The translations under genes were made by a program, and so were the position numbers. Of a stretch of DNA of 64,000 bases, positions 4,209-32,707 are shown in pieces (within the stretch, counting starts at the first letter, position 1; the number at the start of each line of letters is the position of its first letter). The DNA comes from a virus (lineage: Duplodnaviria > Caudoviricetes), in IMG/VR virus record IMGVR_UViG_3300033066_001102, positions 10,614-74,613 of that record. One strand, written 5' to 3'. The notes under the pieces are model-generated. The model did no database searches. It was not told the origin of the DNA and saw nothing but the letters and a program-made list of their open reading frames with translations.

Positions 4209-4221
4209 GGCAGGTTGTTTT

Positions 4222-13336: not shown

Positions 13337-13576
13337 TCAGTATCGGTTTTGATAGTAACAGTTATAGATCTCGTATTCTTCTTCAGTAGCGTTATGCTGC
13401 AAAAGGTATATCAGCAGTTGAAAAATAGTAATGCTGTTTTCCAGTCCGAAGCGTGACAATCCGATGTTTCCCCGGTACACTTTCTTGCAGTGCGCCGACG
13501 ACAACTTGGCTATGATGGTACACGCTAATGCATTGGCATCCGTGTTCTCGATTTCTTTGATATCTGGGACTACCAT
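13337..13576 (-). CDS. Small structural-region hypothetical protein
   Basis: Coupled between tail genes. Confidence 0.55.
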   Translation of the reverse strand: MVVPDIKEIENTDANALACTIIAKLSSAHCKKVYRGNIGLSRFGLENSITIFQLLIYLLQHNATEEEYEIYNCYYQNRY

Positions 13577-14247
13577 TCCGGATCAGTTTGAAGTTTGATT
13601 ATCTTTTTCTGTACAGAACTCAACCCGTTTGTAACACAGTTGCAATCGCATCCATCTGTTTGCGCCACGAACTTAAGGCTCTCAAAATCCTTTACGGTCT
13701 GATAGTACAGATCAATATACTTCTTGTCATTGCACTGAGAAACGCCATTGAAGATTTTCTTTCCAATAGCGGTAATCGCCGCTTGCGCTTGACTATAAAG
13801 AAAAACAGATTCCGTTACCGTGCCGGCTACTGTTTCTTCGTCGGAGTAAACATCATACTTAAATGTCCAACAGCCATCACTGAAGCAGGAAGCCACAACC
13901 CCGTCGCAGTCACTTAGAACCGATTCGCCCCCACATACATCGCAACCTTCAACCACATCATCCTCGTCTTCATCTTCCTCCTCATCCTCTGGAGCGTAGT
14001 TGTCGCAGTTAAATGAAATCTGGCCTTGTGACGGAAGATACCCGAGATCTGTCAGTTCCGTAAAAGTATCCGCGCCTGGAGCTTTAACGGATATTACCGT
14101 TTTAAACACATCCTCCTTCGCAATGTTAGGAGAACCATACCCACCCGGTTCATCATCGGCATCGTAGTCAGGAGTAGTATCTTCAAAATAGTTTGTCTTT
14201 TGATCCGGATAACCGAGCGTTACCGTGAATTCTGGAATGAGCGCCAT
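13570..14247 (-). CDS. Putative tail hub/attachment protein (Cys-rich, acidic insert)
   Basis: Beta-rich N-terminus, helical CDCNC C-terminus; position next to the appendage genes. Confidence 0.45.
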   Translation of the reverse strand: MALIPEFTVTLGYPDQKTNYFEDTTPDYDADDEPGGYGSPNIAKEDVFKTVISVKAPGADTFTELTDLGYLPSQGQISFNCDNYAPEDEEEDEDEDDVVEGCDVCGGESVLSDCDGVVASCFSDGCWTFKYDVYSDEETVAGTVTESVFLYSQAQAAITAIGKKIFNGVSQCNDKKYIDLYYQTVKDFESLKFVAQTDGCDCNCVTNGLSSVQKKIIKLQTDPEW

Positions 14248-14248: not shown

Positions 14249-17200
14249 TCAATTTTTATTTTCTCTTAGTTTGGCCCTATAGCGATATTCACGCTGTTCT
14301 TTAGGAGTCATTTCTTGACGATTTTGCTCCTTAGAATAGTACATCGCATCCATCAATTCTAAGTAAAGATAATCACTAATAACATTCAAATCCCTAAAAC
14401 TCTGAAGCTCAGTCTTAATCTGCGCATCGGTAGCGCCCCTTAATTCTTCCTTTATATATGCTGGCTTCGATTCTGCCGGCAAGTTATGAATGAACTTTTG
14501 ACGCTTACTCAAAGGAAATTTAGGCATTTCCACAACCTTTTTGGTTTGCTGAAGTATCAATCGTTCAGATTCCGGTGTCTCAGGATCCGCAATTTTAAAG
14601 TTGATAGAATCCATGGCTTCATCTTTCGGCATTGTGCTGTATTGTGAATCGTACAATTTTTGAGCATCTTCTTTAACTTTAGCCATATCATACTGTTGTT
14701 CATGTAAAGAGGAGTAGTCGGATGGTTTTACTGCCATTGACCGCTGATTCAGAGTATTCAAAATCTCCTTATTAATGAAAGGAACCTGAATTACCAGGTT
14801 ACCCATTGCCAATGCCGCCCGTGCCATATTATACTTTGCCAGCGCATCATCATCCGGATTACCATTGCCGACCACATCCATTGCATCTAACACCGGTTGG
14901 TACAGCTTATCTATCGGAGTAGTGAACGGCATAAAGATATTGTACACCTGCTTTGCCTGCGCCCATTCCGTTGGTAATGGGAAGTTTGGACTGTATAAAA
15001 GCGCATCATGGTATGAATTATATGCATGCCCTATAAGATTTTCAGTTACCCGCTTATTAGCCATTTCAGCTAATGCATTGAAAATGATTTTGTTGAAGTA
15101 AGGCAGCCTTCCAAGTGCGAATAATTGCAATCCTGCAGAAAACAGATTCCTTGCCCAATACTCTTTAGTGTACAGATCTTCCAATTGCGCCTTTTTCTCT
15201 TTCGGATCTCCACCCATGCCGATAATCAATGCGCTGATCAACTTTGACATTACATTAAATGCCATATTACCTGCCAGATATCCCATGGTAATTCCAGCAG
15301 ACTTAAGCCTTCCGTATTCACCTTTACCAGAAATTAAATCAGAAGCATATCGTTGAGCATACGCCGTTTGTTGATACATAAGTACTCCAAGGAAGTAACG
15401 GAACCGCCCCATGGCATACGCATACCATGCTTTTCGCTCATCTTCATTCTGAAAACTATATACCTTTTCTGCCGCTCTTCCCCGGTTTGAAACACCAATG
15501 GATTTGTCCACAATCTTCTCAGCATAGTTCCCCGCTGCAGTAACTACTTCCGGAGGCAATGTTGTGGTAATATCTTGAACCGGAATATTTTCATCGTACC
15601 CGTGATCCTTTAGGTATTGCCGGAAAGAAGCTACCCATATCGGGAAGGAGCTCGGATAGTCGCCTATACCAATACTAAGTTGCTGAATCAAATCTCCTGT
15701 CCTACGAACAGCATTGTGCTGCCATGCATTGAAAGTGTCAAATGCAAGTGTTTCTAATTTACTTCTGTTACGATGGTCGTACTTCTTCATCGTCGTCCTC
15801 GACTCTTTCCAGTGTTTCAATGGTGATAGGAACGGATTGTGCAGGATCATTGATTGCCCACCTGGCATATCAACAAGCTCGGTGTGTGTGCTAAACCGTT
15901 GATAAATACTGAATCCATTATTACGCATAAGTTCCAACCATTCCCTTGAGTGTGAAAAGAAATCACGGCCATTTTTATAAATGATTTTAATTGCATTATA
16001 TGGATTGCTTGACAAGTAAGCAGCTGCAATGGTCCAGTTAGGAATATATTCCGCAAACCGCTTTACACTGACAAGCGCCTGACCGGTGAGGGACCGGATT
16101 AATGCATCTACAATCTTCTGTCCTGTTGACTTCGACAATTCGTTAAATCCTATCTCATGCTTCAGCATAGTCATTACCTGATCGCGCAACGTAGTAGCAA
16201 GGTCTGAAGTCATTGCATCGGTAAAGGTCGGGGTGATCATTGCCCCAAATACTTCACGGATCGGTTCTGTCAAGTGTTTATCAAACAAAGTCCCTTCAAT
16301 GCTTCCGAGTAGTGACTGATAGGCAAAAGAGTAAAATACCTTTTTCGGATAGGTACGCTGGAACATGGATGATGCCTTTGTATTCATTATCGCATCCCGA
16401 AGCCCATCGCCAGATTCCATAGCAGCAATCTGATTCTCCAACTTTGCTTCATCCACGTTAACACCTCCCAATATGGTCATAGGATGGTAGTTCTCGATGA
16501 AGTTTACATTTTCACCACGCACGTACATCTGCAGGTATTGAACGATTGGTTGCAACCGATCTTCGACAAGGTCATGCAAACCGTTTGCAAAGGCTTTTTG
16601 CGCAGGAGTGAAAGAATCCCATGTTGCCTGAAGATCAATTACCCGTTCTTCTGTATCATCGGTTGGTGTTGTGAATTTTAATGCATTGTAGGCATCCAGG
16701 TAATCCATTTCAAATACATCGGAATAGAATGAACTCTCACGCATGTTTGCGATGCTGTCATTCAGTTTCTTTTTGAAATCAATATCCGGACGGTTACGAT
16801 CCACCTGATTTGCAAATGCCCACATCCTAACCATCATTGCCGCCTTTGATCTGGAATTTAGACCGGTACCAAGCGCGTCGTATAGTTTATCCAATTGATG
16901 CTTAACAGTCTGATAGTCCGTCCGGAATTGTTCAATGGCTGTAGTGATCGGCTGAATATAATGCTGCCAGAAAGGAGCGTCATATTTCATATTTGGATCG
17001 GGCCTTAATAGAATCGTATCCCACAATGTCTTAGGATTGCGTTTCAGTTCTTCTGCTAATTCCCGGATATTCTTAAAGTAAAATTCCGTTTCCTGCTTCA
17101 TGTTAACCACCGTCGCTGCCTTCTGCTGCTTACGTGCAGGAAGCACCCAATCCTTGTCCATGTGACCGGAAACAAGTTGGTTGTGATACAGATTGTACAT

Positions 17201-20200
17201 GACGCCGTAATAGTTCTTCATCTGATTGAACTTAAGTTCATGATGATCGATATTTACGAATTCCCGTACTTTCTGTTGTAATTGCTTGTCAATTTCCGGA
17301 TGCCGCACAATAGAGGTAGGATCAAAATTATTCTTCATTTCGTCAATCAAATCACTCCACCTATTCCGTTGCGCCTCCTCTCTATTTGCCCTTGCCTCTG
17401 ACGATTCCCGTTCTTCAGGTTCCACCGTTTCAATCTCATTGGCCCAATCAGTCACTTCACGGATCACTTCACGGATCAGGTTTACGTCAGGAAGGAGCTC
17501 CCTGCCTTTTGCCGCCAAAGGATTAATTGCCTGGAGATATTTAAACAATAAGTTCACCGGTATCCGTTGCCTACTTTTTATTATGGGCAGGTTCACCAGT
17601 TCCATTCCAAGCATACGGATATCTGGAAACTTCTGTTGTTTAAGCAGATTGCGCCGTGCATCACGCTTTGCGCGAATTGCTTCTCGGTACTGTTCCCTGT
17701 AAATAAACTTGTCAATGGCCTGTTCAAACCGTGTGATGGCTGTAGCAAGCCTTGCAGGATTGCCCTGAGACTTGCGGATTTTGTCAATGGCATCGAGAAA
17801 CAATCTGGTATCACTGAGCCCAATACTCTTTACCCGTTGTGTGATATAATTGGTCAGGTTATCCAATGCCGTTTCCATGTCACCAGGTTGAGCATTGTTC
17901 ACGAACTTCCTAATCCGTTTTAGATAGCTGTCTAAGGAATCAATATCCGCTGCAGAGCTTATACCATAATCATTGAGCATCCGGATGAAATCATCCATTT
18001 TATACGGATTACCCCTTTTCGCCTGATCACGGTACCAGTTGGTTGTTTCGATGTAGTTGAGCGCATTTCGGATTGCACGAGCAACGCTGAATCCTGCCTT
18101 AACGCTATACCGGATAATTTTAAGAGCGCCTTTCAGGATCAACTTTGGAGGAAGCAGGTATGCTTTGCCGCCACTACCCATCTTCGCAAATTCTGAATCT
18201 ACGCTATCATATAATTGTTTTAATCTATTGTCTATGCGTTCTTGAAGACCAGCCGATTTTGAATTGTCCGGAAACTGCATGAACGGTCCTTCTTCTTCTT
18301 CTTCAGTTCCGGCTCCCAATCCTTTAACCTCACCATCCTCGGTGTCTTCACTTTTTGCAGTTGGCTCATCCGCATCCATTTTTTCATCTTCTTCCCGCTG
18401 CTTACGTTCTTGATCTGATTCTTTCTTTCCTTTCCTTTGCTTCCGCTCTTCTTTTCGCTGCTCCCTTTCGCGATCATCCGCAATTAATCTTTGTATGATT
18501 TCCAATAGTTCCATTGAGTTACTATCAAGTTCACCTTCCCCATCGGATGTTATGCCCTCCTGTAATAATTGCGCTTCCAGTTCTAAAATCTGCTTCTGCA
18601 TCATATCCATTTCTTCCATTTTTTCAAATGGCTGCCCGATCTGTCCTTTAATCTTGTCAATTTCAGATTGATACTCGCTGATCCGTGTATCAATCGTTTC
18701 TTGGTCAAATGAGATATCCTTGACCTTGCCATAAATCCTATTGCCCAGTGATATGCCTCCATTAAAATTAAAGGTGTCTTCCATCCGTTCACCTAAAAAT
18801 AACTGTACCTCGCTACCAATCGCATTAGTATCAAAGATGGGCTCTGTTTTTTTATCATAATTAGTACCACGAGCCTCTTCGTTAAACATTCCTGTTTGAC
18901 CACCATCAACCCAAGCACCAAATCGGTTTGTTATAACGGCAGTCATGTGATCGCCAAATTTAATTACCACCTTCACATTACCACCTGCATCACGGCCTTT
19001 CTCATGTAACTTCTGGATTGCCTTTGCCTGCGCCTCATCAATGGCCTGTCCGAATTTTTCTTTATGAACAATACCATCAATCGTAACAGTAGTGATTTTA
19101 CGATCTGATGACTTCATCTTGCCATCTTCCGTTCTTTCAAAATCCATCCAGTTGGGTAGATCTTCCATGAAAGCATTCAAGAATGGCTTGCGAGAATATA
19201 GTGCTGGTATAATCGCTTCCAGTTCCTTCACGCGGCCGGCCAGTTTACCTTCGCGAAGACGATAGTTGTTATATGCTGCCTCAAGCTGCCTAAGCATCCG
19301 TTGACTTTCTCGCAATAACAGTCCAGTCGAACTGCCAGCAAGCATTGATGCCATAATTCCATTTTGAAGATCACCATCAGAAATATCAATATCGTCATGA
19401 GCGCTCCAGTCAAGAAAATTGGAAAGCGCTTGATTAATAAATTTTCCTTTTATCTCTAATCGTTGATAGGCCAAAGCATCCATTGTATCTTTCACGCCAA
19501 CCTCTTTAACCATCACTGGCCGATCAAACCCACCCTCCTCTATTGATAATGCGCAAAGATTTCCCTGTCTTATGCCACGTCCATTACGTTGTGTCATTTT
19601 AGAAGGAAGATCAGGGGCATCTACATGCCATAAGGCAACTACCCTTTCCTGTACATTTATACCTACACCAATTTTATCCGTGTGGCCAATAAGAAATCTA
19701 ACCTTCCCCTCATTCATATCCTGCATGACAAGTGCTCGCCTTAACCCATCAAACTTATCATCTGCAATTACTATTTCGGAAGGAAGAACCCCATTGGCAA
19801 TAAGATTTTTCCGAATTTCCTGATGAGCATTGAATGAAGAATCTCTGGATCTAATCGAATCGCAGAATATCAATTGAGTTCCCTTAATGCCAGTTGTTTC
19901 ATGATACACTTCAGCAGCGCGAATGGCTGTCTGATTCAATTTGCTATTAGGATCTTCCGGATACTTTTTGTATTTGTTATTAAGAAGCCGTACATCAACA
20001 GCCGCTTTCTTTGCTAATCCATAAAGCACAATGGGCAACCAAATAAGTTTAGCTTGTTGAGACCCTTGCAAATTATCCCACCATACCGCAAGGCTTCGAA
20101 TAGTATCAATAACCTCTTTCGTAGCAAAAGACATTTCTAATACTATTTGCTCCACCTCTTTATTTGGTACAAGCCGACTTTCCTTGAACTCTAAAATATC

Positions 20201-23200
20201 TTCATTGGTAACTACATCTACATTTGTTCTAAATGCAGCAACCAGCGCAGGTAGATTTATAAACTCACGCATTCTCGGCAATTCTTTATAAACACCTGTA
20301 GCAGTAAGCTCTAATGATTGCGTGATATGCGTAAAGGATGCGGCAAAGGAATCAAAAGTATCAATACCTAATTCCTTTAACATGGCAGGTGATATATACC
20401 TCATCACTGTCCACATTTCAGCCATTGTATTTGTAATCGGCGTACCGGAAGCCATTACCACATTACGCCCGCCGTTTTGCTGCATAATAAACCGCGTTTT
20501 CGTATATGCATCCCAGGCAATATTTGATCGTTGCACATCAATGCCTCTTATATTTGGAAGAGAAGTATCAAAACCTACTTTTTTGTACGCATCCGCTTCA
20601 TCTAAAATTATCGCATCAATACCCATCTCTTCAAAATAAAATGTTGCATCCTTCTTTTGGTTATTGATTTCAGCAAACTTCCTACGATCTCTCAACGTCT
20701 GCCGACCTTCATCTTTCACCCTACGAGTCTTTTTATCAGCAATAGGCTTTGCGCCCAATTTTTCCATTCTTTTTTTCAACTTCGCTATATCCCTTGAAAA
20801 TTGCTTTTTTTCTTCATTATCCATATTCGCCTTCTGCGCCTCCAGATTAGCAATTTCTGCTTGTAACATTGCCCGTTCTCGATCTGGATCATTGGGTATT
20901 TTTTCCAAGAAACTTCTTGGAATAATCACAACATCCCAAGCACCATAAGCAATTGATGCAAACAACCGTTGCCTGTTTTCTTTTTGCATATCCTTCTTTG
21001 TTGCCATTAGGATACGTTTACCAGGATACAGTTTTGAGGCAGAAGCATTGAACTGTTCAAATGTTGGATTATGAACAACGATCAAAGTTTTATTTGCCAA
21101 CTTCAACCGCTTCCATTCCATTGCAATAGAAATCAGCGTGTAGGTCTTACCGCTACCTACATCATGCGCGAGGTATGTTGACCGGCGCAGCGATCGGAAC
21201 GCGGCCCTGGATTGATGCTGCCGCAGTTTGAATTCTTCACCATCAATAAATTCTGATTGTTCCGGAAATCTTTTTATAACTCTCGTTGATTTATATTCAA
21301 CAAAACCCTGTACTTCATTATTAAAAGATTGCTCCAGTTCATCGTGAATGCTCTCAGTTCGTTTCACCCATGCTTCGAATTCCGATTTCAGTCCTTCCAG
21401 TTTAAGTCTCGCTTCAGCAGTCTTTTCATGATCAACTATTCGCCTTTTCCCTTCTGCGTCAGTCGGATCAATCTTATACACTTTTACATCACCATTATTT
21501 AACGCTTTCTCCATCATTTCTGATGCATCGTAAATTATTTTACCTGTTTCTGGATTTTGGTATCCCCAGGTTGCCTCGCCTAATGAATTAGAACTCCTGT
21601 ACTTATTGAATTTTACACTGTATCTATTTTTTGAAACATTCTCATTGTAGGTTACATCAGCCTGAATATCCTGGTCTTTCATAAACGAGCTGTACACAGA
21701 CAGCGGAATCCACGTTGAGCCAATTCCAGGTGTGATAAGATGCATTGGTGCCCATGGTGGCAATACTTCTTTTAAAGAAGTTACGTTACGTTCAAAATTT
21801 GCGTCTGTTAGTGCGGCTAATTCTGCCTGTTTTAATTTCTCTCGTACATTTCCTGAGATATATTCATCATGATCAATCAACATGCCCGTAATTGGGTCCA
21901 CAAAAGCAAGGCGCTCCTCCAAAATAAGCTGCCTTGCGGCATCTGGATTTATATCAAGCAATTTTGCAACATAATCAATATTGATTGTCCCCTTGTAAAT
22001 GATCGAAATATTTACTGCATCACTTATGCTTTCCGCACTGGTAGGTATTACGTAAGGATAATTCACCCGACGACTAAGAATATCACCTGGAGCAATTTCG
22101 TACTTATAATAAGCATTGCCGGCTTTATTTCTTTCGATTTTTTGAGTGATTTTTTCCAAAGAATAAACAATAGCAAATTCAGAGTCCTCTTTTAAAAATG
22201 ATAGCTTATTGTTACGGTTAATCCGACCATACCTCTCGTGAAAATTTAGGTAAGCAATTCGCAATTTTCTTCGTTGCTCATTCAATTCATCATCTGTAAA
22301 CTTTACTGATCGCTCACTTTGTACCAGTTTTTTTGCTAACTGTTTAACATTAATAAACAATTTAAACACCGTTTCTACCGAAACAGATTTGCCACCGGAT
22401 AGCGTTACTCTCTCATTTTCAAAATCCACATACACGCGAACGCCATTCTCTGAAGTGTATATTTCACCATTTTCATCAATATAATAGCCACCATCTACAT
22501 CTCGCTCTTCTGAAAACAAATCTTCTGTTGTGGTTGATGAATCTGAACCTGTCGTATTAGATATATTTTGCGGCAGTTTATCAATAGCGTTTTCAATCAT
22601 GCCATTTAGATCATCTGAAGTGGGAACCAGTGTATTATCATTAGCTGTATTAAGACCACCCCTACCCGCTTCATGTGCCAGGCGCATTTCACCCATCATC
22701 ATTTCGGGATTATCATGGAAATACTCATTGATAAACTGCGTGTAAGGATCACCCTCATCGTCTACTGTTTCACGGTGTGGCACGGCCATACTCCATAACT
22801 GTGCTTGTGGATGGGTGCGACCCTGATCAGTCCGTTTGCGGAAAATCAGTATATCGGTAGTAACTTCAGTGCCCGCATTCTCTTTAAACGCATTCCAGGG
22901 CAACCGAATAGCCCCCATAAAATCCACTTCCTCATGCTCATTCATGTAGTCACGAAACTCCTGAATAGTCCCCCTGTCCATCGTATTGGATGTAGTGATT
23001 AATACACCAAGTCCTCCTGGCTTCACCATGCGCATGCTCTTACCAATAAAATAGTTGTGGATATTCCACTTCGTCAAATCCTCAAAGTTTTTATCATACA
23101 CCTTGATGGGTCCAAAAGGAACATTGCTAATGGCAAGATCATACGACGCTGGTTGCAACCGCGTTTCTTCGAATCCGGAAACCCGCACATTTGACTGTGG

Positions 23201-26200
23201 ATATAATTTTGTCGCAATACGTCCTGATATCAGATCCAGTTCAACCATGTCCATCTTGCTGTTAGGAACAAGGTTACGAGGCATAAGTCCATTGAAGTGA
23301 CCTACCCCCGCAGCCGGCTCAAGCACCCTACCACCACGGAATCCCAATCGTTCTGCGATGGTCCACATATGGCTAATGATATCTTTCGAAGTGTAATGTG
23401 CGTTTGTGGTAGACGCAATGGCAGATTTCAGTTCTGATGGTGTCAGCATCTTTACAATCTGATTGTGCATGGATAGGTACTTATCTTTCCATGATGTTTG
23501 CCCACGTTCCTGAGCCTTGTTTACATCCAGTACCGTAGCCAATCCCCCCCATCCAGTAAACTGTGCAAGTATTGTTTTTTCTTCTGGTGTTGGATTACGG
23601 TCAGCCTTTTCAAGTTCCTTCAATAGTTCAATAGCTTCAATATTGGCGCGGATTTTACCCATCTCGCCTTTAGGAACTAACTCTGTTGATTGCGTTATTA
23701 CAAAGTTTCTGTTAGCAGGATCTATTGGATCTGCAGTTTCTTCAGAGCTTGATTCAGTAGATTTTGATTTAGGGTTGCTTCTGATGTTTCTACCGGACTT
23801 AGTACGACGCTCGCCTCCTCCTCCGCTTCCGCTTCCGTTGCTCCCAGTTTCAACGCCTTGGTCCGTACCTGTTCCGCCCGTGTCAGTTTCCATTGGAGAT
23901 ATCTCCTCAGTTTCATCGGGTACTTCACCAGGTATGTTAGAAAACTCTGGTCGGTCGCCGCTAAATAGGTCAGATGTTGTACCGCTTCCTGGCTTTGTTC
24001 CAGGGGTTCTTCCTCCACTAATGTTTTCAGTGTTTTCATTTTTTACAGGTAGTTTAAAGTTACTAACTATTTTTTTATCCGTCAGTTGATCGGAGATTTC
24101 ATCTGGTGCACCATAGGCATAAGAGCCATACGCTTTCTTCAGATACGGTAGCATCATTTCTGCTTTCTGATCACCGAACTTCTGCCTGATGCCATTGACA
24201 ATGCTCTCAAACGATGTCATTCCGGCTTTGACAGCACTTTCCACCATCTTGATTCCTGCATCATTCAGTTTGATTTCCTTCTCATTCATTGCACCTTTGG
24301 TGCGCACCTTACTTGTCAGGAATCTTTCTACCAGTCCCTCCTTTGATTTGTATTCACCAGAAGCGCGTAATACTTCACGCATCCCCTTGATAATGGGATG
24401 ATAGTTGGGCAGTCCGAAAATCTTTTTGATTGCTTCAATTAATTCCTGATAGTATGCTTTGATTTTCTGCCATACAGTATGGGAGATGAATCTATTGCCC
24501 AGGTACTCACTGGCATTCATGGCCCAGAATTCAGAAGGATTGGCATATTGGTAATCATCACGATTCAGTACACCATTCAAGAAATCCAAAAACACCTGAT
24601 CCTGAATATCTTTATCATTAGAGATCGTTGATAAATGTAGGTTGCGTAATGCTTCTCTACGTTCTGTAGTAGCATTTCTAAGTTGCTTATCGTATTGTTT
24701 TGCCCACTCAACAAAAATTGCCTTTTGCGCTTCATCCGACAACATTCGCTCGGTGTGGTGCAATATCTCATGCACGATCACATAAGGATCATTATTGCTT
24801 TTGATAATGCGAACCAGTCGATTGAATGGAGAATATGTCCCCGCCATTCCCTTATAGTCATTGGTGACGATGGAGATGCCCAGGTCAGATGCAACAAGAG
24901 GATTTTTATTCAATAACCATAATGCGAATTCCGCGCCTACCTGAGTTATTTCTCCTTTGCGCTGTGCATTGAGTATTCGCTCTTTGACATATACGGGACC
25001 GCGCTTCCTGTCCCTGATTCTCTTGCTCTGATTGCGCTCAAAGTTTTCATCGAGCAATCTTGCCAACCGGATGGAGAATTCTTTCGGATCCAATTCACCG
25101 GAACTCAGTTCTCTGTCGAGTGCTTTTAGTTTGGCAATGAAACTGAATCGTTTTTCTTTTTCCTCACTCGCATACGGGATCGAGAACATATTTTTTACGA
25201 TGTCGCTTCCATCATCTGTCAGATCATCGAACAGATCTCCGAACTCATCCATTGCGGCATCAACCTCTGATGGAATGTCAACAGGTGGGTATGCCGTTGG
25301 TTTCCCTGCTTCAAAATATGTTTGAATTGCGCCAATATGTCTTCGTACATAATCATCCGTATTTTCAATTTTTCCATTAGCATCTTTTTTCAATGGAGGA
25401 ATACCAATCTTTTCAAAGAGAAGATTGAACTTATTAAAGTCAATGGTGCCAATGCCTAACAATTGAGTTTGCATCCACGATGAAAGATCTTGTGGACGAT
25501 TCCTGCCAATATTAAAGCCAATAGTTTCAATATCTGATTCTACGCTTCGCCGCAGATCCATCTTGATAGCAGATCGCAACACAAAGTTTACAATATCCTC
25601 CACTTTAGTATCAGCGCTGATGTCTTCCGGTTTATATTCATTCTTACCGATCACCAACTTTCTTCCAAACATATTTAGCATCACGGCCTTCACTTCCTGC
25701 CAGAATTCTTTAATCAGATCAATCAGTGATTTATCTTCCAATTGTTTCCGTGCTTCCAAGTCAATTGCCCTGGCAATCATTTCATGCGTCTTCATCCTCG
25801 CGCTGGCATTCGGATATTTGCTGTCAACAAATTCCTTAACCTCCTTATTCTTTCGGACAGACTTCTGCAACCGGTCATACAATTCCGGGTTGCGTTTCTC
25901 TATAGCGAGAATAAATGGATGTGAGAATGCTTCGTGAATTGGAGTGGTTTCATCGGCAACACCACTTACAAAGTATGCTGTTTCTGTTGCATCATCATAA
26001 AATCCGGCCGGCATCGGACCGTCATACTTCTGCATCCTGTATCGCTTAGTTGCGTCCATGATAGCATCCATGTATTCCTTATCGGCAGCAAGAATCTCAA
26101 CCGTATATGCCTTGTCGATTGCATTATTCTTAACAATGTAATCACCTGGAGTAATTGTTTCTTTTTGGCTATTTAGTGTAGCTTTATCTGCATCACGCTT

Positions 26201-29200
26201 TTTCCTTGCATCCTCTTTACGCTTATCCCGCTTTTCACGCGCTTGCTTTGTGATTGTGTCATAAATACTTTGTTTCTCCCTACGTTGGCGCATTTGCTCT
26301 TCATGCGCACTTTTTCCAGCCTGCCTTTCGCGTTCATATTGGCGTTGCCTTTCTTGCTGTCGCCGCTGCCAGTCACGCATTTGTTCTTCTTGATCCCTGC
26401 GGAAGTCTTCATAGGTATTCCGCTGTTGATGACCAGATCTTCCAGAACCCTGATCACCTGGTCTGCGAGCATGACTATCACTGATAATACCCTTGTTATA
26501 GTTGTCATTCACTACATTGAGGTACTTCATCAGCTCTAACGCATCCGCACCCTTGTCTGGATGATATTTGAATGATAACTTTCGATATGCTTTACGTGCT
26601 TCTTCTTTATTGGCAACTGTCCGATAGACCTTTAGGATAAATGCTTTTGCCTCGTTTTGATCAACATTATCGAATAAATCAATGTCTTCCAATATGCCGA
26701 AAAAGAAATCGCGATCCGAATTTAGAATTGCTTTGGCTTCGTCTTGAGTAACTGTTTTGTAATTGATGCCAAATCGTTTCTTAAGCGCTTCACCGATAGT
26801 ATTTAGTTCCTGATCGTTGAGTTTCCTATTATTTAATTTTGTTTGCCTGCGATCAATAGCATTCTTAATTCTTGTTGCAGGATGAGTTTCACGATTGCCT
26901 TTTGGAACCTCATTCCTTGATATGATATTCTTTAGACGGTCCAGTTCTGTTTGACCTGCAGCTTCAATAATATTATCAGGCAATGATTCAATATGAGAGT
27001 ATAAATCTTTGTGCCTTTTAGCTGATGGTGCACGTTTATCCAGTTCCAGATATGCATCATTCCATTGCTTCAAATTAGACCATGTAACCCTCGTTCCAGG
27101 AGTAGTAATTTCTTCAGGTCCAGTAGCAACAGTTTCGGTACGACCGTCAATGATCCGCATTTTCTCAGCGGCCATCCAGTTCATCATAATCTTTTGTCCT
27201 GCAGCATTTGCTTCTTCCCATGTAGCATAACGGGCATCGTTACCATTCCATTTACCACCTTCACCTTTAATAATCAGTTCAACACGATATGGGAAATTCT
27301 CTACATCTTTTTTCTTATCAACCGGTTCAGGCGCTTCTTCTTTCTCGCTTGCAATCACTTCTGAAAACTTCTTTGGTGTCCAATACAGATCCAATTCAAC
27401 CGGCAGTGACTTCATTTCCTCAATGCTGATGTAGCCCCATTCGCCGTCTTCGCCAAACTTCGCATAACCGAACGCCTGGTACTGTTTCCCCTTATCTTTC
27501 GGAGCATCATCCTTGGATCCCTTGTCTTTCTCGATGATGTACCAATCCCTGCCGCCAATGAAGTAGTGCAGGTACACTATTTTGTCGCCTTCTTCCTGGT
27601 CATCCGTTTCATAAGTGGCTGGCATTCCTTCAATCAACTTGTCCAGTTTGTCCAGCATGTCGATGAAGAACTCGGATTCCTCACTCTTTAATTCGTTTTG
27701 CTGCAGCGATTCCAGTTCCGCCTCCGGCATGAAGTTGACGATATTCGGAGTGATAACGGACTTAGCAGTTTTTTCAACCTTAGAGGGTTTTACTTCTTCC
27801 TCTTTGGCTTCGGTGGTATTGTCCGTACTCGTTTTTTTATCGGTGGTAGGGGTAAATTCTTTTTTGAATAATTCAACCTGATCTTTGGGAACTTCAATGG
27901 CTACTTTTTTAAGTCCTAATTCTTTTGCTGCAAGGATTCTATGCCTGCCATCTTCAAATCCTAATTTGCCATCATTAATACTTGCAACGCTTGGTTCAAA
28001 TGTAACTTTCGTTTCAGTCCGTTCACCTGTTTTGGGATGAACCCATCTATTATCATTCAGATAATTACTAATGAACTCTTTTGCTTTTTGAACCCTATTC
28101 CCAATCTGATTCTTTTTATTTGTTACATCATAATCCGGTTGATCTTTTGACTGCCGTTCAAGTATCTTGTCAGTATCCACAAAAACAATTTCATTCTTCT
28201 TTGGATTCCTTAATGTGTATTCAACGTCCTCAAGTGCATTAGGATTTTTGCCTACGTCTTCTTTTGGCACTCCGAACTCTTCAAGTTGTTGTCTTGTGTC
28301 AGTAGGTTGACTTTCTGGAACTACTTCTTCTTGTGAAAGTCCTTCTGCGATATTGGTTGCTTCGACATTTCTTTCACCGCCTGCAATCGCTCCTCGTTTT
28401 TCTTCTGGTGATTGAGAGGCGGCTTTGCCCCGTATTCCATTTTTATTTGCCAATTCTTCTATTTTAGCAAGCAAATCCGTTTCAGATAAATTTAAAATAT
28501 CTTCTTTATCTAAAGGGAAACTTTGATCTGCTATATCTATGTATTTTTCACCTGTATGAATATTCGTTCTTTCTGTTTCTTTTCTATACGTTATATGCCA
28601 ATTTCCTCCTACACTAAATAATTTTTCAAAAACATAGTCCCCTATTTTATTAGGTAATACCTTTCTTAAAATATTAGATGTTTTCTTTACATCTTCTTGT
28701 ATATTTTTTTCGTCAAATTTTTCAAATGCTTTTTGTTTTTTAACATCTACATCATTCAATGCACTTTCCCCTTTGGCTTCTGGCTGTTGTATTTCATTTT
28801 TAGCAACGCCAGCGCCACCTTGCTGCTCTTGTCCAATTTCGTCTTTGGTTTCTTCGGTTGTGATTTCATTGATCAGAGTTTTTGTTTCGTCAGTTAATGG
28901 TACTTCCAATGTAAGTTCCTCTATGGTCCCATCAGGATTATCATCAAGCCATGCAAGAATATCTTCTTGCTCAGAGGAAGGTATCTGTGATGCTTTTTTG
29001 CGATATTCTGCGAATGTTTTTAAAAGAGTTCTGTCAAATTGTATCCCTGTAATGGCCGTAAATTGCTGCCCTAATCTTGATGTTAACGGCCCAAATAATT
29101 TAGATTCATCCAGACCATTAGGATACTTAAGCATAAAGTCCCACAAATCCTTCTCTGTAAATCGATCAAAATCTTCTCTAAGATTGAGATCTGAAACAGA

Positions 29201-32200
29201 TTGATCTATACCCTTTGCATTTTTACCGTAGTAATTATCTCTAAGCGCCTGCCAATTAGGTAAATCACTAAGATCATATCCGAAATATCTCCTTACATCT
29301 TCATTGTTAAAACTGATGTGCGCATCAGCCATCCGTCGCTCTTTATCACTAAATTGCAACGACTCACCTTCCATTTGATCCATGTAGGCCGCACCAATCA
29401 ATATTTCTAATGGATTCTCGCCTTCAGATCCGAGTTTGTGATAATAGTCTTCTTCATTATTGATATCCGACACATCAAGCTCAGGAGTACTTGAATATTT
29501 TTCAACCAGGTAACCAGAAACAACTTTATCATAAATAGGACTTCTTCGATCAACTTCTTTACCCGAAACCGAATTTTCAAATATTATAGAGCCACTTTTC
29601 GATTTCTTAACCTCATATTCAATGTTCTCTACCGATATAAATTCCTTGTTACCGATAACAGATAATTTCGCCTTGTTTTTATTTTCAGTACCTGGAGTGA
29701 TCTCTTTTTTGATATCTTCAAGTTGATCAATCAATTCCTCATCAAGATCATCTTCAGGGAAAGGAATATCTACAGGAATATGTTCTACCGGATCACCAAT
29801 GTCAATTCCAATAACAGGTGGTACTACGTCGATAATAGGAACAGTTTGACTCTCTGGCATCCCCGCTGCTACATTAGTCTGCTCCTTTATCTTTCTATTC
29901 AATTCAGCCAGTAGTGCTGAAGCATGCGCCGCAGGAATATTTTTATACCGGTTCACTTTCATTGCTACTTCTGCCTCATTCATGCCAGGAGCACCCACCT
30001 TCTTAGCCGTTGCCCTCGTTTCAAAAGCATTTAATACTTGTTCCGCATAAATCCTTTCATCGCCCGCTGCAAATTTCCCGAGATTCTTTTTTCTGAAATC
30101 CCTGATGGACATTACGCCGGCATTGCGAAGTGCATACAGTTGTCCCAGTTTTCCGTTGCTTATATTCACAGCAACAGGATTCTGATTCACGTCGAAGTAA
30201 CGAACAGTTGATTTTGCTTTTGGCAAGAATGATCCCACTGATGCTATAGGAGCAAACGCCCCGATTCCCAATGCAGTAGTAGCAAAAAACTCTTTATTAT
30301 ACCCTTCAAAAACGCCCTGATCACCGGTAATTATATTCGATAACGGACTATTTACCCATTCTTCAAATTGCTCACCAATGATATTTGAATATGAAAGGTT
30401 ATGCTTAAATATCTCTTGTATTGCTTCATTCGGCTCAATACCATGACGCGCTAACCAGTAACCAACAGTCAGTCGCTTCATAAAATCAGGATCCTTCAGC
30501 ACCTTTTTTGAGAAAGCATTACCCATCCATGGAACAACCTCTCCAATTCGCTCAGTAGCAAATTCAGCCCATGAAGTACCAAATGCTTTTGCAAAAGCAG
30601 TAGAAAAGTCTTCTCCTCTGCCCTTTTGCGATTCATCCAATTGGTATAACAATTTAGTTCCGTCAGGCGAAAAAGCCATTACCATTCCCGGTTGCATGCG
30701 CTCCAGTGTGGTGTTAATATACATTTGAGGATTTGCAGCCGTTTGCGCTATTCCACCAATAAGGCTTGCCAATACCTCGCTTGAACGTCCCGCTGCCGAT
30801 TCTGCAAATATTACCGAACCGGCCGATTTAGCACTTTGTGCGGCGCTGATTTTTCCAAGATCAAGAATGCTTGTACCCGCTTTTGCAGCAATCTTTTGCA
30901 GACCTTGTCCTACTACTGTTTTTGCGGAAGAATAAACACCACTTGTAGCTGCAAATTCACCAATGTAAGGGAACATTCCGGTTGTTATTTGCCCGGCCGT
31001 GTACCAGTAATTCGGTGTAATCTGGCTTTCAATATCATTCTTTGCTGTTTCTGATTGCAACAGCAATGTTTCAATAGGAGATAAGGCCTTGCCATCGCGA
31101 ACTTTATTCTTGATACTTAACAGATTGATGTTGTCTGGAATGTCAGCAATAGATTTTATAAAAGGAATAAAATCGGTCATTCGTTTATTTATCGCACCTT
31201 GATAAAACCATCCCTGATAGTTTTCTGGCAATGTCCCAATTTTGACGAGATTTTCCCGTGTCTGCAGCAATAGTCTGTATTCCTTGTATTTATCTATGGA
31301 TTCATTAGATAGCGATCCGTTTTTTTCAATACCATCATTCCTTGCTACATTTAATTCCTTTTTTAATTCGGCTATTTGCTTATCGATTTCTGGCAATGTC
31401 TGTTCTGCATAGCTGCGAAGCGAAAAGGTAGTTAAGTTACCCTTGTCAGTGATATATGCCGGCCTTACTACATGGTAATAAAATTGCTTTCTGGCTTCAA
31501 AAATATCCTCTGGCGACACGCCTGCATTATGAAGCTCTATTGCTTTATTTTGCCAGGCATGATCCATCAACTTCTTTTTCTCTTCATAGGATTTTCCTTG
31601 AAATTCTGGACTTTCGAAAGCACTTTGCGCCTTCCGTATGTAATCGCCACCGAGAATGGTCTTAGATGGGCTGATTACGGCATCAATTTTTAAATTGAAT
31701 GCATCATCAATTTCTGTTTTAAGGGGAGTAAAATATTTACTTTGCCATAGATCAGTGATTTTGGCATTATACACCTGATTTAACTCAGCACCTTTTTGTC
31801 TAACAAAGTTTTGAGCATTGGCATTTCCTTCAGGTGATGAAAGATCAAATGTTTTAGAGGCTTCTACTTTAAGGTTTTGTATTGCCGCTTCCAATGATTT
31901 GTTTAATGCAAGATACTCTGGATCTCTTTGAAAAATAGAATCGTACTTCGACTGAATGGGACGAATAAATGAAGTGTCTGCGTACACCTTATTGAGATTA
32001 TTAAGAATCTCAGCCCGTGGCTTAAGAAAGCTGTCTATTTGTGTAGGTAATCGATATTGCTGACCATAGAAAGTATTTGATGCCGGCTGATTAATAACAT
32101 CTTTTAGGAAGTTTGTGTTTTTAGCTTTGAGTACTTCTTCATGCATCACACCTAACCCAACCAACTTATCTCTCATTCCATCGGCATCTTCTATATCACC

Positions 32201-32707
32201 CTCTGTAATGGTTTTTTTCGCAATTGCTATTTGCTTATTTCCGGAAGGGAATTGACCAATAAGCTCACCACCTTCAACTTTCAGTTTCGGAACTTCTGGC
32301 ACCCATCCCGCGAAGTAATCGGTGATCATCCGTTTTGCCTTCTGAACCATTGATTGATCCGTTGGCTCCTGGTCAACCGCATTAACCGGTTTCTGCGGAT
32401 AAGTAACGGAAGATTTATTTTCAGTAGCCGTCGGTGTAGCGACAGGAGTACTGGTCAACTTATCACCCAAGTTTGCCGATGGTCCGAGCGATTTTGTATC
32501 AACAGGGGCAGTGTTGGTCAGACGGAGCGCACTGTCAACCTTTGAACTGAACTTGTCATAATCAGGAAGATTGAAATCTCTGGCAGCGGCATCATAAAAG
32601 GACTTCCGGAGTTTTGGGTCCTTCATCTTCGACTGAAAATTCTCATAGCTGCCTACATTGAACTTTTGTGAAGCGGCCTGGTATAATGGGAGCAAATCAT
32701 TGGGCAT
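14249..32707 (-). CDS. Giant 6152-aa polyvalent, probably virion-injected protein with a DarB-like N6-adenine MTase plus SF2 helicase, J-domain, DUF2958, ParB-like and zincin-like modules
   Basis: VLEPAAGVGHF and NVPF (MTase); AHDVGSGKT, DEAD, SGTPITN, QRNGRGIRQG (SF2); YRKLSFKYHPDKG (J); HEAFSH and HEILH; DGRHR; ejection-protein-like N-terminus; lies next to cargo genes. Confidence 0.85.
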   Translation of the reverse strand: MPNDLLPLYQAASQKFNVGSYENFQSKMKDPKLRKSFYDAAARDFNLPDYDKFSSKVDSALRLTNTAPVDTKSLGPSANLGDKLTSTPVATPTATENKSSVTYPQKPVNAVDQEPTDQSMVQKAKRMITDYFAGWVPEVPKLKVEGGELIGQFPSGNKQIAIAKKTITEGDIEDADGMRDKLVGLGVMHEEVLKAKNTNFLKDVINQPASNTFYGQQYRLPTQIDSFLKPRAEILNNLNKVYADTSFIRPIQSKYDSIFQRDPEYLALNKSLEAAIQNLKVEASKTFDLSSPEGNANAQNFVRQKGAELNQVYNAKITDLWQSKYFTPLKTEIDDAFNLKIDAVISPSKTILGGDYIRKAQSAFESPEFQGKSYEEKKKLMDHAWQNKAIELHNAGVSPEDIFEARKQFYYHVVRPAYITDKGNLTTFSLRSYAEQTLPEIDKQIAELKKELNVARNDGIEKNGSLSNESIDKYKEYRLLLQTRENLVKIGTLPENYQGWFYQGAINKRMTDFIPFIKSIADIPDNINLLSIKNKVRDGKALSPIETLLLQSETAKNDIESQITPNYWYTAGQITTGMFPYIGEFAATSGVYSSAKTVVGQGLQKIAAKAGTSILDLGKISAAQSAKSAGSVIFAESAAGRSSEVLASLIGGIAQTAANPQMYINTTLERMQPGMVMAFSPDGTKLLYQLDESQKGRGEDFSTAFAKAFGTSWAEFATERIGEVVPWMGNAFSKKVLKDPDFMKRLTVGYWLARHGIEPNEAIQEIFKHNLSYSNIIGEQFEEWVNSPLSNIITGDQGVFEGYNKEFFATTALGIGAFAPIASVGSFLPKAKSTVRYFDVNQNPVAVNISNGKLGQLYALRNAGVMSIRDFRKKNLGKFAAGDERIYAEQVLNAFETRATAKKVGAPGMNEAEVAMKVNRYKNIPAAHASALLAELNRKIKEQTNVAAGMPESQTVPIIDVVPPVIGIDIGDPVEHIPVDIPFPEDDLDEELIDQLEDIKKEITPGTENKNKAKLSVIGNKEFISVENIEYEVKKSKSGSIIFENSVSGKEVDRRSPIYDKVVSGYLVEKYSSTPELDVSDINNEEDYYHKLGSEGENPLEILIGAAYMDQMEGESLQFSDKERRMADAHISFNNEDVRRYFGYDLSDLPNWQALRDNYYGKNAKGIDQSVSDLNLREDFDRFTEKDLWDFMLKYPNGLDESKLFGPLTSRLGQQFTAITGIQFDRTLLKTFAEYRKKASQIPSSEQEDILAWLDDNPDGTIEELTLEVPLTDETKTLINEITTEETKDEIGQEQQGGAGVAKNEIQQPEAKGESALNDVDVKKQKAFEKFDEKNIQEDVKKTSNILRKVLPNKIGDYVFEKLFSVGGNWHITYRKETERTNIHTGEKYIDIADQSFPLDKEDILNLSETDLLAKIEELANKNGIRGKAASQSPEEKRGAIAGGERNVEATNIAEGLSQEEVVPESQPTDTRQQLEEFGVPKEDVGKNPNALEDVEYTLRNPKKNEIVFVDTDKILERQSKDQPDYDVTNKKNQIGNRVQKAKEFISNYLNDNRWVHPKTGERTETKVTFEPSVASINDGKLGFEDGRHRILAAKELGLKKVAIEVPKDQVELFKKEFTPTTDKKTSTDNTTEAKEEEVKPSKVEKTAKSVITPNIVNFMPEAELESLQQNELKSEESEFFIDMLDKLDKLIEGMPATYETDDQEEGDKIVYLHYFIGGRDWYIIEKDKGSKDDAPKDKGKQYQAFGYAKFGEDGEWGYISIEEMKSLPVELDLYWTPKKFSEVIASEKEEAPEPVDKKKDVENFPYRVELIIKGEGGKWNGNDARYATWEEANAAGQKIMMNWMAAEKMRIIDGRTETVATGPEEITTPGTRVTWSNLKQWNDAYLELDKRAPSAKRHKDLYSHIESLPDNIIEAAGQTELDRLKNIISRNEVPKGNRETHPATRIKNAIDRRQTKLNNRKLNDQELNTIGEALKKRFGINYKTVTQDEAKAILNSDRDFFFGILEDIDLFDNVDQNEAKAFILKVYRTVANKEEARKAYRKLSFKYHPDKGADALELMKYLNVVNDNYNKGIISDSHARRPGDQGSGRSGHQQRNTYEDFRRDQEEQMRDWQRRQQERQRQYERERQAGKSAHEEQMRQRREKQSIYDTITKQAREKRDKRKEDARKKRDADKATLNSQKETITPGDYIVKNNAIDKAYTVEILAADKEYMDAIMDATKRYRMQKYDGPMPAGFYDDATETAYFVSGVADETTPIHEAFSHPFILAIEKRNPELYDRLQKSVRKNKEVKEFVDSKYPNASARMKTHEMIARAIDLEARKQLEDKSLIDLIKEFWQEVKAVMLNMFGRKLVIGKNEYKPEDISADTKVEDIVNFVLRSAIKMDLRRSVESDIETIGFNIGRNRPQDLSSWMQTQLLGIGTIDFNKFNLLFEKIGIPPLKKDANGKIENTDDYVRRHIGAIQTYFEAGKPTAYPPVDIPSEVDAAMDEFGDLFDDLTDDGSDIVKNMFSIPYASEEKEKRFSFIAKLKALDRELSSGELDPKEFSIRLARLLDENFERNQSKRIRDRKRGPVYVKERILNAQRKGEITQVGAEFALWLLNKNPLVASDLGISIVTNDYKGMAGTYSPFNRLVRIIKSNNDPYVIVHEILHHTERMLSDEAQKAIFVEWAKQYDKQLRNATTERREALRNLHLSTISNDKDIQDQVFLDFLNGVLNRDDYQYANPSEFWAMNASEYLGNRFISHTVWQKIKAYYQELIEAIKKIFGLPNYHPIIKGMREVLRASGEYKSKEGLVERFLTSKVRTKGAMNEKEIKLNDAGIKMVESAVKAGMTSFESIVNGIRQKFGDQKAEMMLPYLKKAYGSYAYGAPDEISDQLTDKKIVSNFKLPVKNENTENISGGRTPGTKPGSGTTSDLFSGDRPEFSNIPGEVPDETEEISPMETDTGGTGTDQGVETGSNGSGSGGGGERRTKSGRNIRSNPKSKSTESSSEETADPIDPANRNFVITQSTELVPKGEMGKIRANIEAIELLKELEKADRNPTPEEKTILAQFTGWGGLATVLDVNKAQERGQTSWKDKYLSMHNQIVKMLTPSELKSAIASTTNAHYTSKDIISHMWTIAERLGFRGGRVLEPAAGVGHFNGLMPRNLVPNSKMDMVELDLISGRIATKLYPQSNVRVSGFEETRLQPASYDLAISNVPFGPIKVYDKNFEDLTKWNIHNYFIGKSMRMVKPGGLGVLITTSNTMDRGTIQEFRDYMNEHEEVDFMGAIRLPWNAFKENAGTEVTTDILIFRKRTDQGRTHPQAQLWSMAVPHRETVDDEGDPYTQFINEYFHDNPEMMMGEMRLAHEAGRGGLNTANDNTLVPTSDDLNGMIENAIDKLPQNISNTTGSDSSTTTEDLFSEERDVDGGYYIDENGEIYTSENGVRVYVDFENERVTLSGGKSVSVETVFKLFINVKQLAKKLVQSERSVKFTDDELNEQRRKLRIAYLNFHERYGRINRNNKLSFLKEDSEFAIVYSLEKITQKIERNKAGNAYYKYEIAPGDILSRRVNYPYVIPTSAESISDAVNISIIYKGTINIDYVAKLLDINPDAARQLILEERLAFVDPITGMLIDHDEYISGNVREKLKQAELAALTDANFERNVTSLKEVLPPWAPMHLITPGIGSTWIPLSVYSSFMKDQDIQADVTYNENVSKNRYSVKFNKYRSSNSLGEATWGYQNPETGKIIYDASEMMEKALNNGDVKVYKIDPTDAEGKRRIVDHEKTAEARLKLEGLKSEFEAWVKRTESIHDELEQSFNNEVQGFVEYKSTRVIKRFPEQSEFIDGEEFKLRQHQSRAAFRSLRRSTYLAHDVGSGKTYTLISIAMEWKRLKLANKTLIVVHNPTFEQFNASASKLYPGKRILMATKKDMQKENRQRLFASIAYGAWDVVIIPRSFLEKIPNDPDRERAMLQAEIANLEAQKANMDNEEKKQFSRDIAKLKKRMEKLGAKPIADKKTRRVKDEGRQTLRDRRKFAEINNQKKDATFYFEEMGIDAIILDEADAYKKVGFDTSLPNIRGIDVQRSNIAWDAYTKTRFIMQQNGGRNVVMASGTPITNTMAEMWTVMRYISPAMLKELGIDTFDSFAASFTHITQSLELTATGVYKELPRMREFINLPALVAAFRTNVDVVTNEDILEFKESRLVPNKEVEQIVLEMSFATKEVIDTIRSLAVWWDNLQGSQQAKLIWLPIVLYGLAKKAAVDVRLLNNKYKKYPEDPNSKLNQTAIRAAEVYHETTGIKGTQLIFCDSIRSRDSSFNAHQEIRKNLIANGVLPSEIVIADDKFDGLRRALVMQDMNEGKVRFLIGHTDKIGVGINVQERVVALWHVDAPDLPSKMTQRNGRGIRQGNLCALSIEEGGFDRPVMVKEVGVKDTMDALAYQRLEIKGKFINQALSNFLDWSAHDDIDISDGDLQNGIMASMLAGSSTGLLLRESQRMLRQLEAAYNNYRLREGKLAGRVKELEAIIPALYSRKPFLNAFMEDLPNWMDFERTEDGKMKSSDRKITTVTIDGIVHKEKFGQAIDEAQAKAIQKLHEKGRDAGGNVKVVIKFGDHMTAVITNRFGAWVDGGQTGMFNEEARGTNYDKKTEPIFDTNAIGSEVQLFLGERMEDTFNFNGGISLGNRIYGKVKDISFDQETIDTRISEYQSEIDKIKGQIGQPFEKMEEMDMMQKQILELEAQLLQEGITSDGEGELDSNSMELLEIIQRLIADDREREQRKEERKQRKGKKESDQERKQREEDEKMDADEPTAKSEDTEDGEVKGLGAGTEEEEEGPFMQFPDNSKSAGLQERIDNRLKQLYDSVDSEFAKMGSGGKAYLLPPKLILKGALKIIRYSVKAGFSVARAIRNALNYIETTNWYRDQAKRGNPYKMDDFIRMLNDYGISSAADIDSLDSYLKRIRKFVNNAQPGDMETALDNLTNYITQRVKSIGLSDTRLFLDAIDKIRKSQGNPARLATAITRFEQAIDKFIYREQYREAIRAKRDARRNLLKQQKFPDIRMLGMELVNLPIIKSRQRIPVNLLFKYLQAINPLAAKGRELLPDVNLIREVIREVTDWANEIETVEPEERESSEARANREEAQRNRWSDLIDEMKNNFDPTSIVRHPEIDKQLQQKVREFVNIDHHELKFNQMKNYYGVMYNLYHNQLVSGHMDKDWVLPARKQQKAATVVNMKQETEFYFKNIRELAEELKRNPKTLWDTILLRPDPNMKYDAPFWQHYIQPITTAIEQFRTDYQTVKHQLDKLYDALGTGLNSRSKAAMMVRMWAFANQVDRNRPDIDFKKKLNDSIANMRESSFYSDVFEMDYLDAYNALKFTTPTDDTEERVIDLQATWDSFTPAQKAFANGLHDLVEDRLQPIVQYLQMYVRGENVNFIENYHPMTILGGVNVDEAKLENQIAAMESGDGLRDAIMNTKASSMFQRTYPKKVFYSFAYQSLLGSIEGTLFDKHLTEPIREVFGAMITPTFTDAMTSDLATTLRDQVMTMLKHEIGFNELSKSTGQKIVDALIRSLTGQALVSVKRFAEYIPNWTIAAAYLSSNPYNAIKIIYKNGRDFFSHSREWLELMRNNGFSIYQRFSTHTELVDMPGGQSMILHNPFLSPLKHWKESRTTMKKYDHRNRSKLETLAFDTFNAWQHNAVRRTGDLIQQLSIGIGDYPSSFPIWVASFRQYLKDHGYDENIPVQDITTTLPPEVVTAAGNYAEKIVDKSIGVSNRGRAAEKVYSFQNEDERKAWYAYAMGRFRYFLGVLMYQQTAYAQRYASDLISGKGEYGRLKSAGITMGYLAGNMAFNVMSKLISALIIGMGGDPKEKKAQLEDLYTKEYWARNLFSAGLQLFALGRLPYFNKIIFNALAEMANKRVTENLIGHAYNSYHDALLYSPNFPLPTEWAQAKQVYNIFMPFTTPIDKLYQPVLDAMDVVGNGNPDDDALAKYNMARAALAMGNLVIQVPFINKEILNTLNQRSMAVKPSDYSSLHEQQYDMAKVKEDAQKLYDSQYSTMPKDEAMDSINFKIADPETPESERLILQQTKKVVEMPKFPLSKRQKFIHNLPAESKPAYIKEELRGATDAQIKTELQSFRDLNVISDYLYLELMDAMYYSKEQNRQEMTPKEQREYRYRAKLRENKN

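Follow-up and report, generated by a model that had tools for sequence, protein, structure and literature searches.

In podoviruses, three ejection proteins are encoded after the tail genes, the largest of them being the counterpart of gp16 of T7, a transglycosylase carrier, or of gp50 of N4. DarB of phage P1 (2255 aa) is a methyltransferase-helicase fusion that is packaged into the capsid and shields the incoming DNA from type I restriction; in P1, a myovirus, packaging depends on DarA, Hdf, DdrA and Ulx. Here we analyse a window of 64,000 nucleotides (bases 10614-74613 of the 74,613-bp IMG/VR virus record IMGVR_UViG_3300033066_001102), in which a single open reading frame (ORF) encodes a giant protein of 6152 residues that carries a DarB-like core at a cargo position of a crAss-type virion module. 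Residue numbers refer to this giant protein.

The closest described proteins are the virion-associated DarB-like giants of podophages, namely Burkholderia Bcep22 gp75/JC1 gp69 (4515 aa), PEp14 gp27 (4914 aa) and BKO1-TP3 gp55 (5553 aa). JC1 gp69, which takes up 22% of its genome, was abundant in purified virions, where 51 of its peptides were detected (PMC9144972). In crAss001, gp45, gp46, gp47, gp49 and gp50 have been identified as virion cargo by mass spectrometry, and this cargo is ejected and refolded (PMC10172136). The virion RNA polymerase (vRNAP) of N4 is built as N-terminal domain, enzyme and C-terminal domain, and two smaller proteins, which it follows, are ejected along with it (PMC13434306). 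Iyer et al. predict that the polyvalent proteins of phages are packaged and injected (PMC5512222).

The giant ORF of the present window (14249-32707, minus strand; 699.8 kDa) is uninterrupted, as the preliminary description had reported in calling it a single ORF of 18.5 kb, and represents 24.7% of a record that is 95% complete by CheckV and has no terminal repeat. Like the podophage giants, it is one ORF amounting to 22-26% of a 60-75-kb genome, located within the virion module or adjacent to it, and it shares with them the same N6A-methyltransferase and superfamily 2 (SF2) helicase core at 30-32% identity over about 1500 residues. Outside this core and a HExxH module no similarity was found and the ends differ, the N-terminal tag common to BKO1-TP3 gp55 and the present protein apart. 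Only the present giant has the crAss-type cargo-slot setting and a J-domain, and it is the longest of the giants compared. As an overall explanation, we think it likely that the protein is a virion-packaged, ejected polyvalent cargo protein in which two chassis ends enclose an inserted payload. Its parts are the following.

14249..32707, minus strand: giant ORF, 6152 aa, 699.8 kDa, 2 cysteines
32522..32707, minus strand: N-terminal tag, residues 1-62, with an internal twin repeat (phrog_24532, E 1e-10)
28718..32521, minus strand: N-terminal chassis, residues 63-1330 (51-90% in the related giants P0002-P0004; in P0007 residues 970-1300 only)
18164..28717, minus strand: variable payload, residues 1331-4848, flanked by polar linkers (composition differs among five giants)
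27758..28030, minus strand: ParB-like motif region, DGRHR at residue 1586 (motif only)
27353..27766, minus strand: conserved module, residues 1648-1785 (phrog_5203, E 1.4e-11)
26456..26656, minus strand: J-domain, residues 2018-2084 (29.3 bits against a gathering cut-off, GA, of 27.8; HPD at 2049-2051)
24332..25177, minus strand: HExxH module, residues 2511-2792, HEILHH at 2646 (similarity to PEp14 gp27)
19430..24034, minus strand: DarB-like core, residues 2892-4426, N6A-methyltransferase and SF2 helicase (Pfam, PHROG and motifs)
14252..18163, minus strand: C-terminal chassis, residues 4849-6152 (47-92% in all giants; matches payload-free proteins)

Several distinct effector modules are combined in this one chain: the J-domain, the methyltransferase, the SF2 helicase, the HExxH module and the phrog_5203 module. 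Pfam recognized in the core an Eco57I-type methyltransferase together with SNF2, ResIII and Helicase_C, and phrog_10089, annotated as 'DarB-like antirestriction', matched with 1202 bits across residues about 3000-4780. Motifs I and IV of the methyltransferase (EPAAGVG and NVPFG) and motifs I, II, III and VI of the helicase (GSGKT, DEAD, SGTP and QRNGRG) are intact, and so is the catalytic HPD motif of the J-domain, which was the sole match in an NCBIfam scan. The HExxH module is 34% identical to residues 3643-3926 of gp27 of Erwinia phage PEp14, where it stands across the other side of the core, so that both proteins have this module and the core (30% identity over 1500 residues) in common but in a rearranged order. 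Residues 1648-1785 are 45% identical to part of the 'internal head protein' of Xanthomonas phage Rb1. The methyltransferase, the helicase and the J-domain had all been named in the preliminary description, and the present searches agree with it on these three. It had also listed two zincin motifs, of which the one at residue 2646 holds and the one at 2258 does not, being HExxxH and not HExxH. Its ParB-like module reduces to the DGRHR motif, with no match to PF02195 (ParB) on the genome, and its DUF2958 is not confirmed, as PF11171 had no match on the genome either; conservation of residues 1648-1785 as a module is real all the same. LPD14 matched weakly at residues 763-817 (20.9 bits, cut-off 27); otherwise LPD14 and LPD39 appeared only as neighbours in a protein atlas, where they serve as leads, and the remaining atlas output consisted of unnamed viral clusters.

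The origin of this arrangement can be read from its relatives, which were sought among 5.8 billion and 1.84 billion proteins and of which very few were found. The C-terminal profile retrieved 8 matches only from 1.84 billion representative proteins (HMMER), which marks the lineage as rare. Four other giants, P0002 (5392 aa), P0003 (5496 aa), P0004 (4887 aa) and P0007 (4991 aa), all have residues 4849-6152 in common with the present one, and P0002-P0004 also residues 1-1330, P0007 keeping residues 1-61 and 970-1300 only. Between these ends, P0002 is devoid of residues 1388-2470 and P0003 of residues 1281-1957 and 2489-2818, P0007 has added tetratricopeptide repeats (TPRs), and in P0004 the whole DarB core is replaced by a non-orthologous methylase and a Strawberry-notch helicase. 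Synteny was unchanged at the loci of the giants where checked. Module shuffling between relatives is thus seen in five giants that keep their ends and vary in the middle. An apparently 'split' giant in locus L003 was discarded, the interruption being a scaffold gap of N and not a genuine split.

The C-terminal profile also extends to payload-free proteins of 2236-2404 aa (P0008, P0010 and P0011), whose C-terminal half corresponds to that of the giant, and hhalign aligned payload-free proteins with the C-terminus of the giant at 99.8% probability (E 2.8e-29, 881 columns). For two payload-free proteins the same slot could be placed. One is the 2368-aa protein of G001, the sole sister genome in IMG/VR (78,308 bp, terminal repeats, 100% complete), whose virion module is collinear with that of the window (identities of 68% for the major capsid protein, MCP, 55% for the portal, 51% for the large terminase subunit, TerL, 54% for the muzzle and 43-47% for the cargo-like genes). 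The other is P0011 (2404 aa, L008 10001-17215), which follows a muzzle-C gene, is last in its virion module, contains a PF01832 glucosaminidase and matches with its C-terminus that of a 3694-aa 'structural protein' of Flavobacterium phage elemoC. P0011 can be described as another kind of payload on the same C-terminal chassis. P0008 has the same downstream genes as the giant. Because its C-terminus is homologous to these payload-free slot proteins, the giant appears to be, at least C-terminally, an older cargo-slot protein that has received an insert of about 3500 residues. Residues 63-1330 had no detectable homology to the payload-free proteins, and the C-terminal chassis returned nothing by tblastn against INPHARED, in two IMG/VR scans or in a PDB profile search.

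At the extreme N-terminus, the tag is homologous to gp119, a 102-aa 'structural protein' of Cellulophaga phage phi46:3 (tblastn 39%, E 6e-11), and a hidden Markov model built from the tag matched, exactly from residue 1 and over the first 60 residues, both BKO1-TP3 gp55 (E 8e-10) and P0010 (E 8e-5). In phi46:3, gp119 directly precedes the 1439-aa virion protein gp120 (L002 11986-16625), as though tag and cargo were split; P0008 and gp120 have a stretch of 49 residues in common (E 6e-7), and hhalign of the N-terminal profile of the giant against gp120 gave nothing. BKO1-TP3 (PQ571269.1; L018 5630-22291) is a cultured temperate Bacteroides phage whose gp55 gene makes up 25.6% of the genome and adjoins the portal gene, and the phage is a possible model for experiments.

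The principle of such proteins and the DarB-like payload were already known, and the present case is a very large further example of them. In the part of the account by Iyer et al. that we used (PMC5512222), polyvalent proteins are likewise composed of methyltransferase, SF2 helicase, zincin and ParB-type modules that undergo shuffling, whereas a constant chassis with an internal variable cassette on a crAss-type tail sets the present giant apart from what is described there. What is new is the combination of conserved ends with a swappable middle, which shows how a giant of this kind originates by cassette insertion; further additions are the shared tag, the cysteine signature and a polymerase-less lineage whose tail is of crAss type.

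The position of the gene bears directly on the question of the polymerase. The preliminary description had assigned the giant to the slot of the crAss virion RNA polymerase, and had proposed that an anti-defence protein is injected instead of a polymerase. In crAss001, the muzzle gp44 is followed by cargo 1 (gp45), cargo 2 (gp46) and gp47 (2341 aa, without DxDxD), with gp49 and gp50 on the opposite strand and DFDVD in gp50 only. On the basis of this gene order, the giant stands in the slot of gp47 and not in that of the catalytic gp50. The two cargo sets are alike in their muzzle, two mid-size cargo genes and a very large, cysteine-poor helical protein thereafter, but no sequence or profile similarity to gp45-gp50 was detected and the present genome has no DFDxD polymerase. 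The DFDxD motif that the preliminary description had not found is indeed missing: no DxDxD occurs anywhere in the 6152 residues, in contrast to the DFDVD found at residue 1483 of crAss001 gp50 as a positive control. Pfam, PDB and NCBIfam gave no polymerase match to the giant, and among the other ORFs of at least 150 aa, the early ones included, Pfam identified proteins of replication and recombination but no polymerase.

A very divergent virion RNA polymerase might nevertheless be hidden from sequence methods, since crAss polymerases are extremely divergent, and the epsilon group, first thought to be without one, was later assigned a polymerase by HHpred (PMC7886860, PMC11054128). About 2600 chassis residues are without an assigned fold and would offer room for it. 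To this possibility we give next to no credence, in view of the absence not only of database matches but also of the motif itself: the three DxDxD of the own genome all lie in acidic stretches of 225- and 569-aa ORFs, no ORF of at least 300 aa in G001 contains one, and the chassis models, of low confidence, are almost wholly helical with no barrel-sized sheet. As the complete sister G001 is payload-free and also has no DxDxD protein, the lineage appears to be without the crAss polymerase whether the payload is present or not. Since G001 has neither, no polymerase was displaced by the payload, which is better described as inserted into a cargo protein of older origin than as a polymerase substitute. 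Hence, the delivery of the giant by the virion retains the support of comparison, while the 'instead of a polymerase' of the earlier proposal has to be corrected. In N4 gp50 the central enzyme is a polymerase and in the present giant a methyltransferase-helicase array, homology between the two not being established. Dependence on the host RNA polymerase, which the preliminary description had also put forward, is arrived at by elimination.

One sign that the giant travels in the particle lies in its composition. Of its 6152 residues, 2 are cysteines, whereas cysteine makes up 1.0% of the other counted proteins of the same phage (binomial P 2.8e-24), and the payload alone contains 2 in 3518 (P 2.9e-13). 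The same depletion is seen in the slot protein of G001 (0/2368), in crAss001 gp45-gp50 (7/7478), in PEp14 gp27 (0/4914), in elemoC gp20 (0/3694) and in BKO1 gp55 (8/5553), in contrast to the muzzles, with 10-17 cysteines, and to the replicative SNF2 helicase of the phage itself, with 6 in 557 residues. The locus also shows the layout of podovirus ejection genes: the tail genes are followed by three genes in a row, of which the third is the largest, and the relative P0011 has a predicted hydrolase in the same slot. Taken together, the slot position, the homology of the ends, the shared cysteine depletion and the published mass spectrometry of DarB-like giants in virions lend good comparative support to the proposed delivery by the virion.

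These same data speak to the view that the giant is not packaged at all and is a late cytoplasmic enzyme complex, which would methylate or remodel progeny DNA and would merely be encoded among virion genes. Phage methyltransferases commonly act before packaging, and the presence of the giant in virions is supported by comparison only. We nonetheless hold this view to be highly unlikely, given that the near-absence of cysteine spans the enzymatic payload, unlike the cytoplasmic helicase and C5-methylase of the phage, that the ends have homologues in the cargo slot of relatives and the tag among annotated virion structural proteins, and that DarB-like giants occur in virions elsewhere (PMC9144972).

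If the giant is ejected cargo, the following sequence of events may be proposed. The protein would be made late, with the virion genes, and a few copies would be stored in the capsid. Its chassis, consisting of the tag, residues 63-1330 and residues 4849-6152, would be the cysteine-free and mainly helical part, and the chain would pass out through the tail in a largely unfolded state, either before the DNA or together with it. Inside the cell, the J-domain could recruit the host DnaK for refolding or for pulling in, the methyltransferase-helicase core could act on the incoming genome in a P1 DarB-like manner to protect it from restriction, and the HExxH and other modules might process the giant itself or address further host targets. 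The early genes would presumably be read by the host RNA polymerase. The core and P1 DarB can be aligned by tblastn over about a quarter of the core (E 3e-18, 29% identity). DarA, Hdf, DdrA, DdrB and Ulx did not surface in the general Pfam and PHROG scans of the neighbouring genes, no search having been aimed at them.

The fate of the chain within this scheme could be different if the protein were chiefly an inner core or a scaffold of the ejectosome, cut by its HExxH module around packaging, with some of the fragments entering the cell. Self-processing by zincin metallopeptidase (MPTase) modules is proposed, and the processing of P1 DdrB before packaging is mentioned, by Iyer et al. (PMC5512222); moreover, long polar linkers separate the modules of the giant, and its conserved parts are the ends. 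Against such a polyprotein, N4 vRNAP and JC1 gp69 are reported as full-length in virions (PMC5512222, PMC9144972), and the same ends are kept in P0003, which is without the HExxH module, and in P0004, which has no match to it. We consider this variant unlikely, and it differs from delivery of an intact cargo protein in detail without being opposed to it.

Several points weigh against the reading of the giant as an ejected, anti-restriction cargo protein of crAss type. Its support is comparative, the proteomic proof of packaging coming from other phages, none of them close, and an anti-restriction role would be transferred from P1 DarB, with which part of the core aligns at 29% identity. The 569- and 459-aa proteins encoded upstream had no match to the crAss cargo families PF25725 and PF25712 among Pfam profiles; tblastn of crAss001 gp47, gp49 and gp50 returned no match on the genome with E below 0.07, and hhalign of the N- or C-terminal profiles against gp47, the only one of these proteins that was run, stayed under 1% probability. 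The hydrophobic peaks of the giant are weak by hydropathy (residues 807-825 and 5811-5833). AlphaFold2 models were mostly helical for residues 1-1200, with a predicted local distance difference test (pLDDT) of 39, and all-helical for residues 5035-6152 (pLDDT 47.6); the long helical C-terminus noted before is thereby reproduced, yet both models are of low confidence and the fold of the chassis is not fixed by them. The Bacteroidota promoter TTTG...TAnnTTTG was found 4 times against 2.4 expected, and for TAnnTTTG alone the counts were 29 and 25, where about 30 were expected, so that the search yields no positive support for host promoters.

The genes around the giant place it in a crAss-type virion module. 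Its ATG comes 10 nt after the end of the preceding gene, its own stop codon lies 1 nt ahead of the next start, and with these gaps the giant is part of a long co-oriented block that starts at the terminase. The block opens with TerL (phrog_6681), the portal, a methyltransferase/glycosyltransferase gene, two unannotated genes and MCP; after MCP come four small genes, tail ring 1 and the 1368-aa muzzle, and then the 569-aa and 459-aa proteins, the giant, proteins of 225 and 1137 aa, a tailspike-like protein of 639 aa, an esterase and a holin. The members nearest to the giant are the following.

39919..40569, minus strand: crAss tail ring protein 1 (PF24228, 29.9 bits)
35813..39919, minus strand: crAss-type muzzle protein, 1368 aa (PF25731, E 1.5e-84)
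34101..35810, minus strand: 569-aa cargo-like protein, 0 cysteines (by position, size and cysteine count)
32718..34097, minus strand: 459-aa cargo-like protein, 0 cysteines (by position, size and cysteine count; kept in relatives)
13570..14247, minus strand: 225-aa cysteine-rich protein (4.4%), directly downstream of the giant (position kept in relatives)

The INPHARED matches of TerL and MCP were to Crassvirales only, at 22-25% identity. Judged from its sequence, the phage is a distant crAss relative with a crAss-type tail. Yutin et al. treated environmental phages outside five groups as not crAss-like (PMC7886860), and the present lineage probably falls among those outside the five crAss groups. 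The preliminary description had spoken of two cargo-like genes in a crAss-like virion module; the module is supported by the muzzle, the ring and the TerL and MCP matches, and membership of the two genes in the crAss cargo families is not, so that 'cargo-like' would here refer to position, size and zero cysteines only.

These findings bring the theme of the giant DarB-like virion protein, represented in Burkholderia and Erwinia phages and in one Bacteroides phage, inside a crAss-type particle. They also add a crAss-related lineage, with two genomes of which one is complete, that has a crAss tail and cargo layout and no virion polymerase, which bears on the timing of polymerase gain or loss. 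Cysteine depletion, a position-specific N-terminal tag and constant ends are candidate markers for injected proteins in uncultured phages, and they suggest a testable packaging signal. We tentatively raise the rather doubtful idea that the tag and the cysteine-free helical ends form a general protein-delivery platform of Bacteroidota podophages, of which the polymerase-associated cargo of crAss phages would be far-diverged members. The payloads of such a platform would comprise a cell-wall hydrolase, two different methylase-helicase pairs and TPR modules, of up to about 3500 residues; if this were true, no more than the tag and the ends would be needed for a foreign protein, hundreds of kDa in size, to be loaded and injected.

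Other features of the region deserve mention. The mass of the giant (699.8 kDa) is close to the 693.9 kDa of crAss001 gp47, gp49 and gp50 added together (PMC10172136), which may be a coincidence or reflect a limit of cargo volume. The 225-aa ORF directly downstream (13570-14247, minus strand) has 10 cysteines and an acidic stretch and is thus a cysteine-rich neighbour of cysteine-free cargo; a gene of 224-306 aa is found at its position in the loci L003, L004, L006 and L007 of relatives and in the sister G001. The gene between the portal and capsid genes (47651-48889, minus strand) joins a methyltransferase and a family-25 glycosyltransferase, and a BD-FAE esterase gene (4853-5692, minus strand), conserved in L003 and L004, adjoins the holin.

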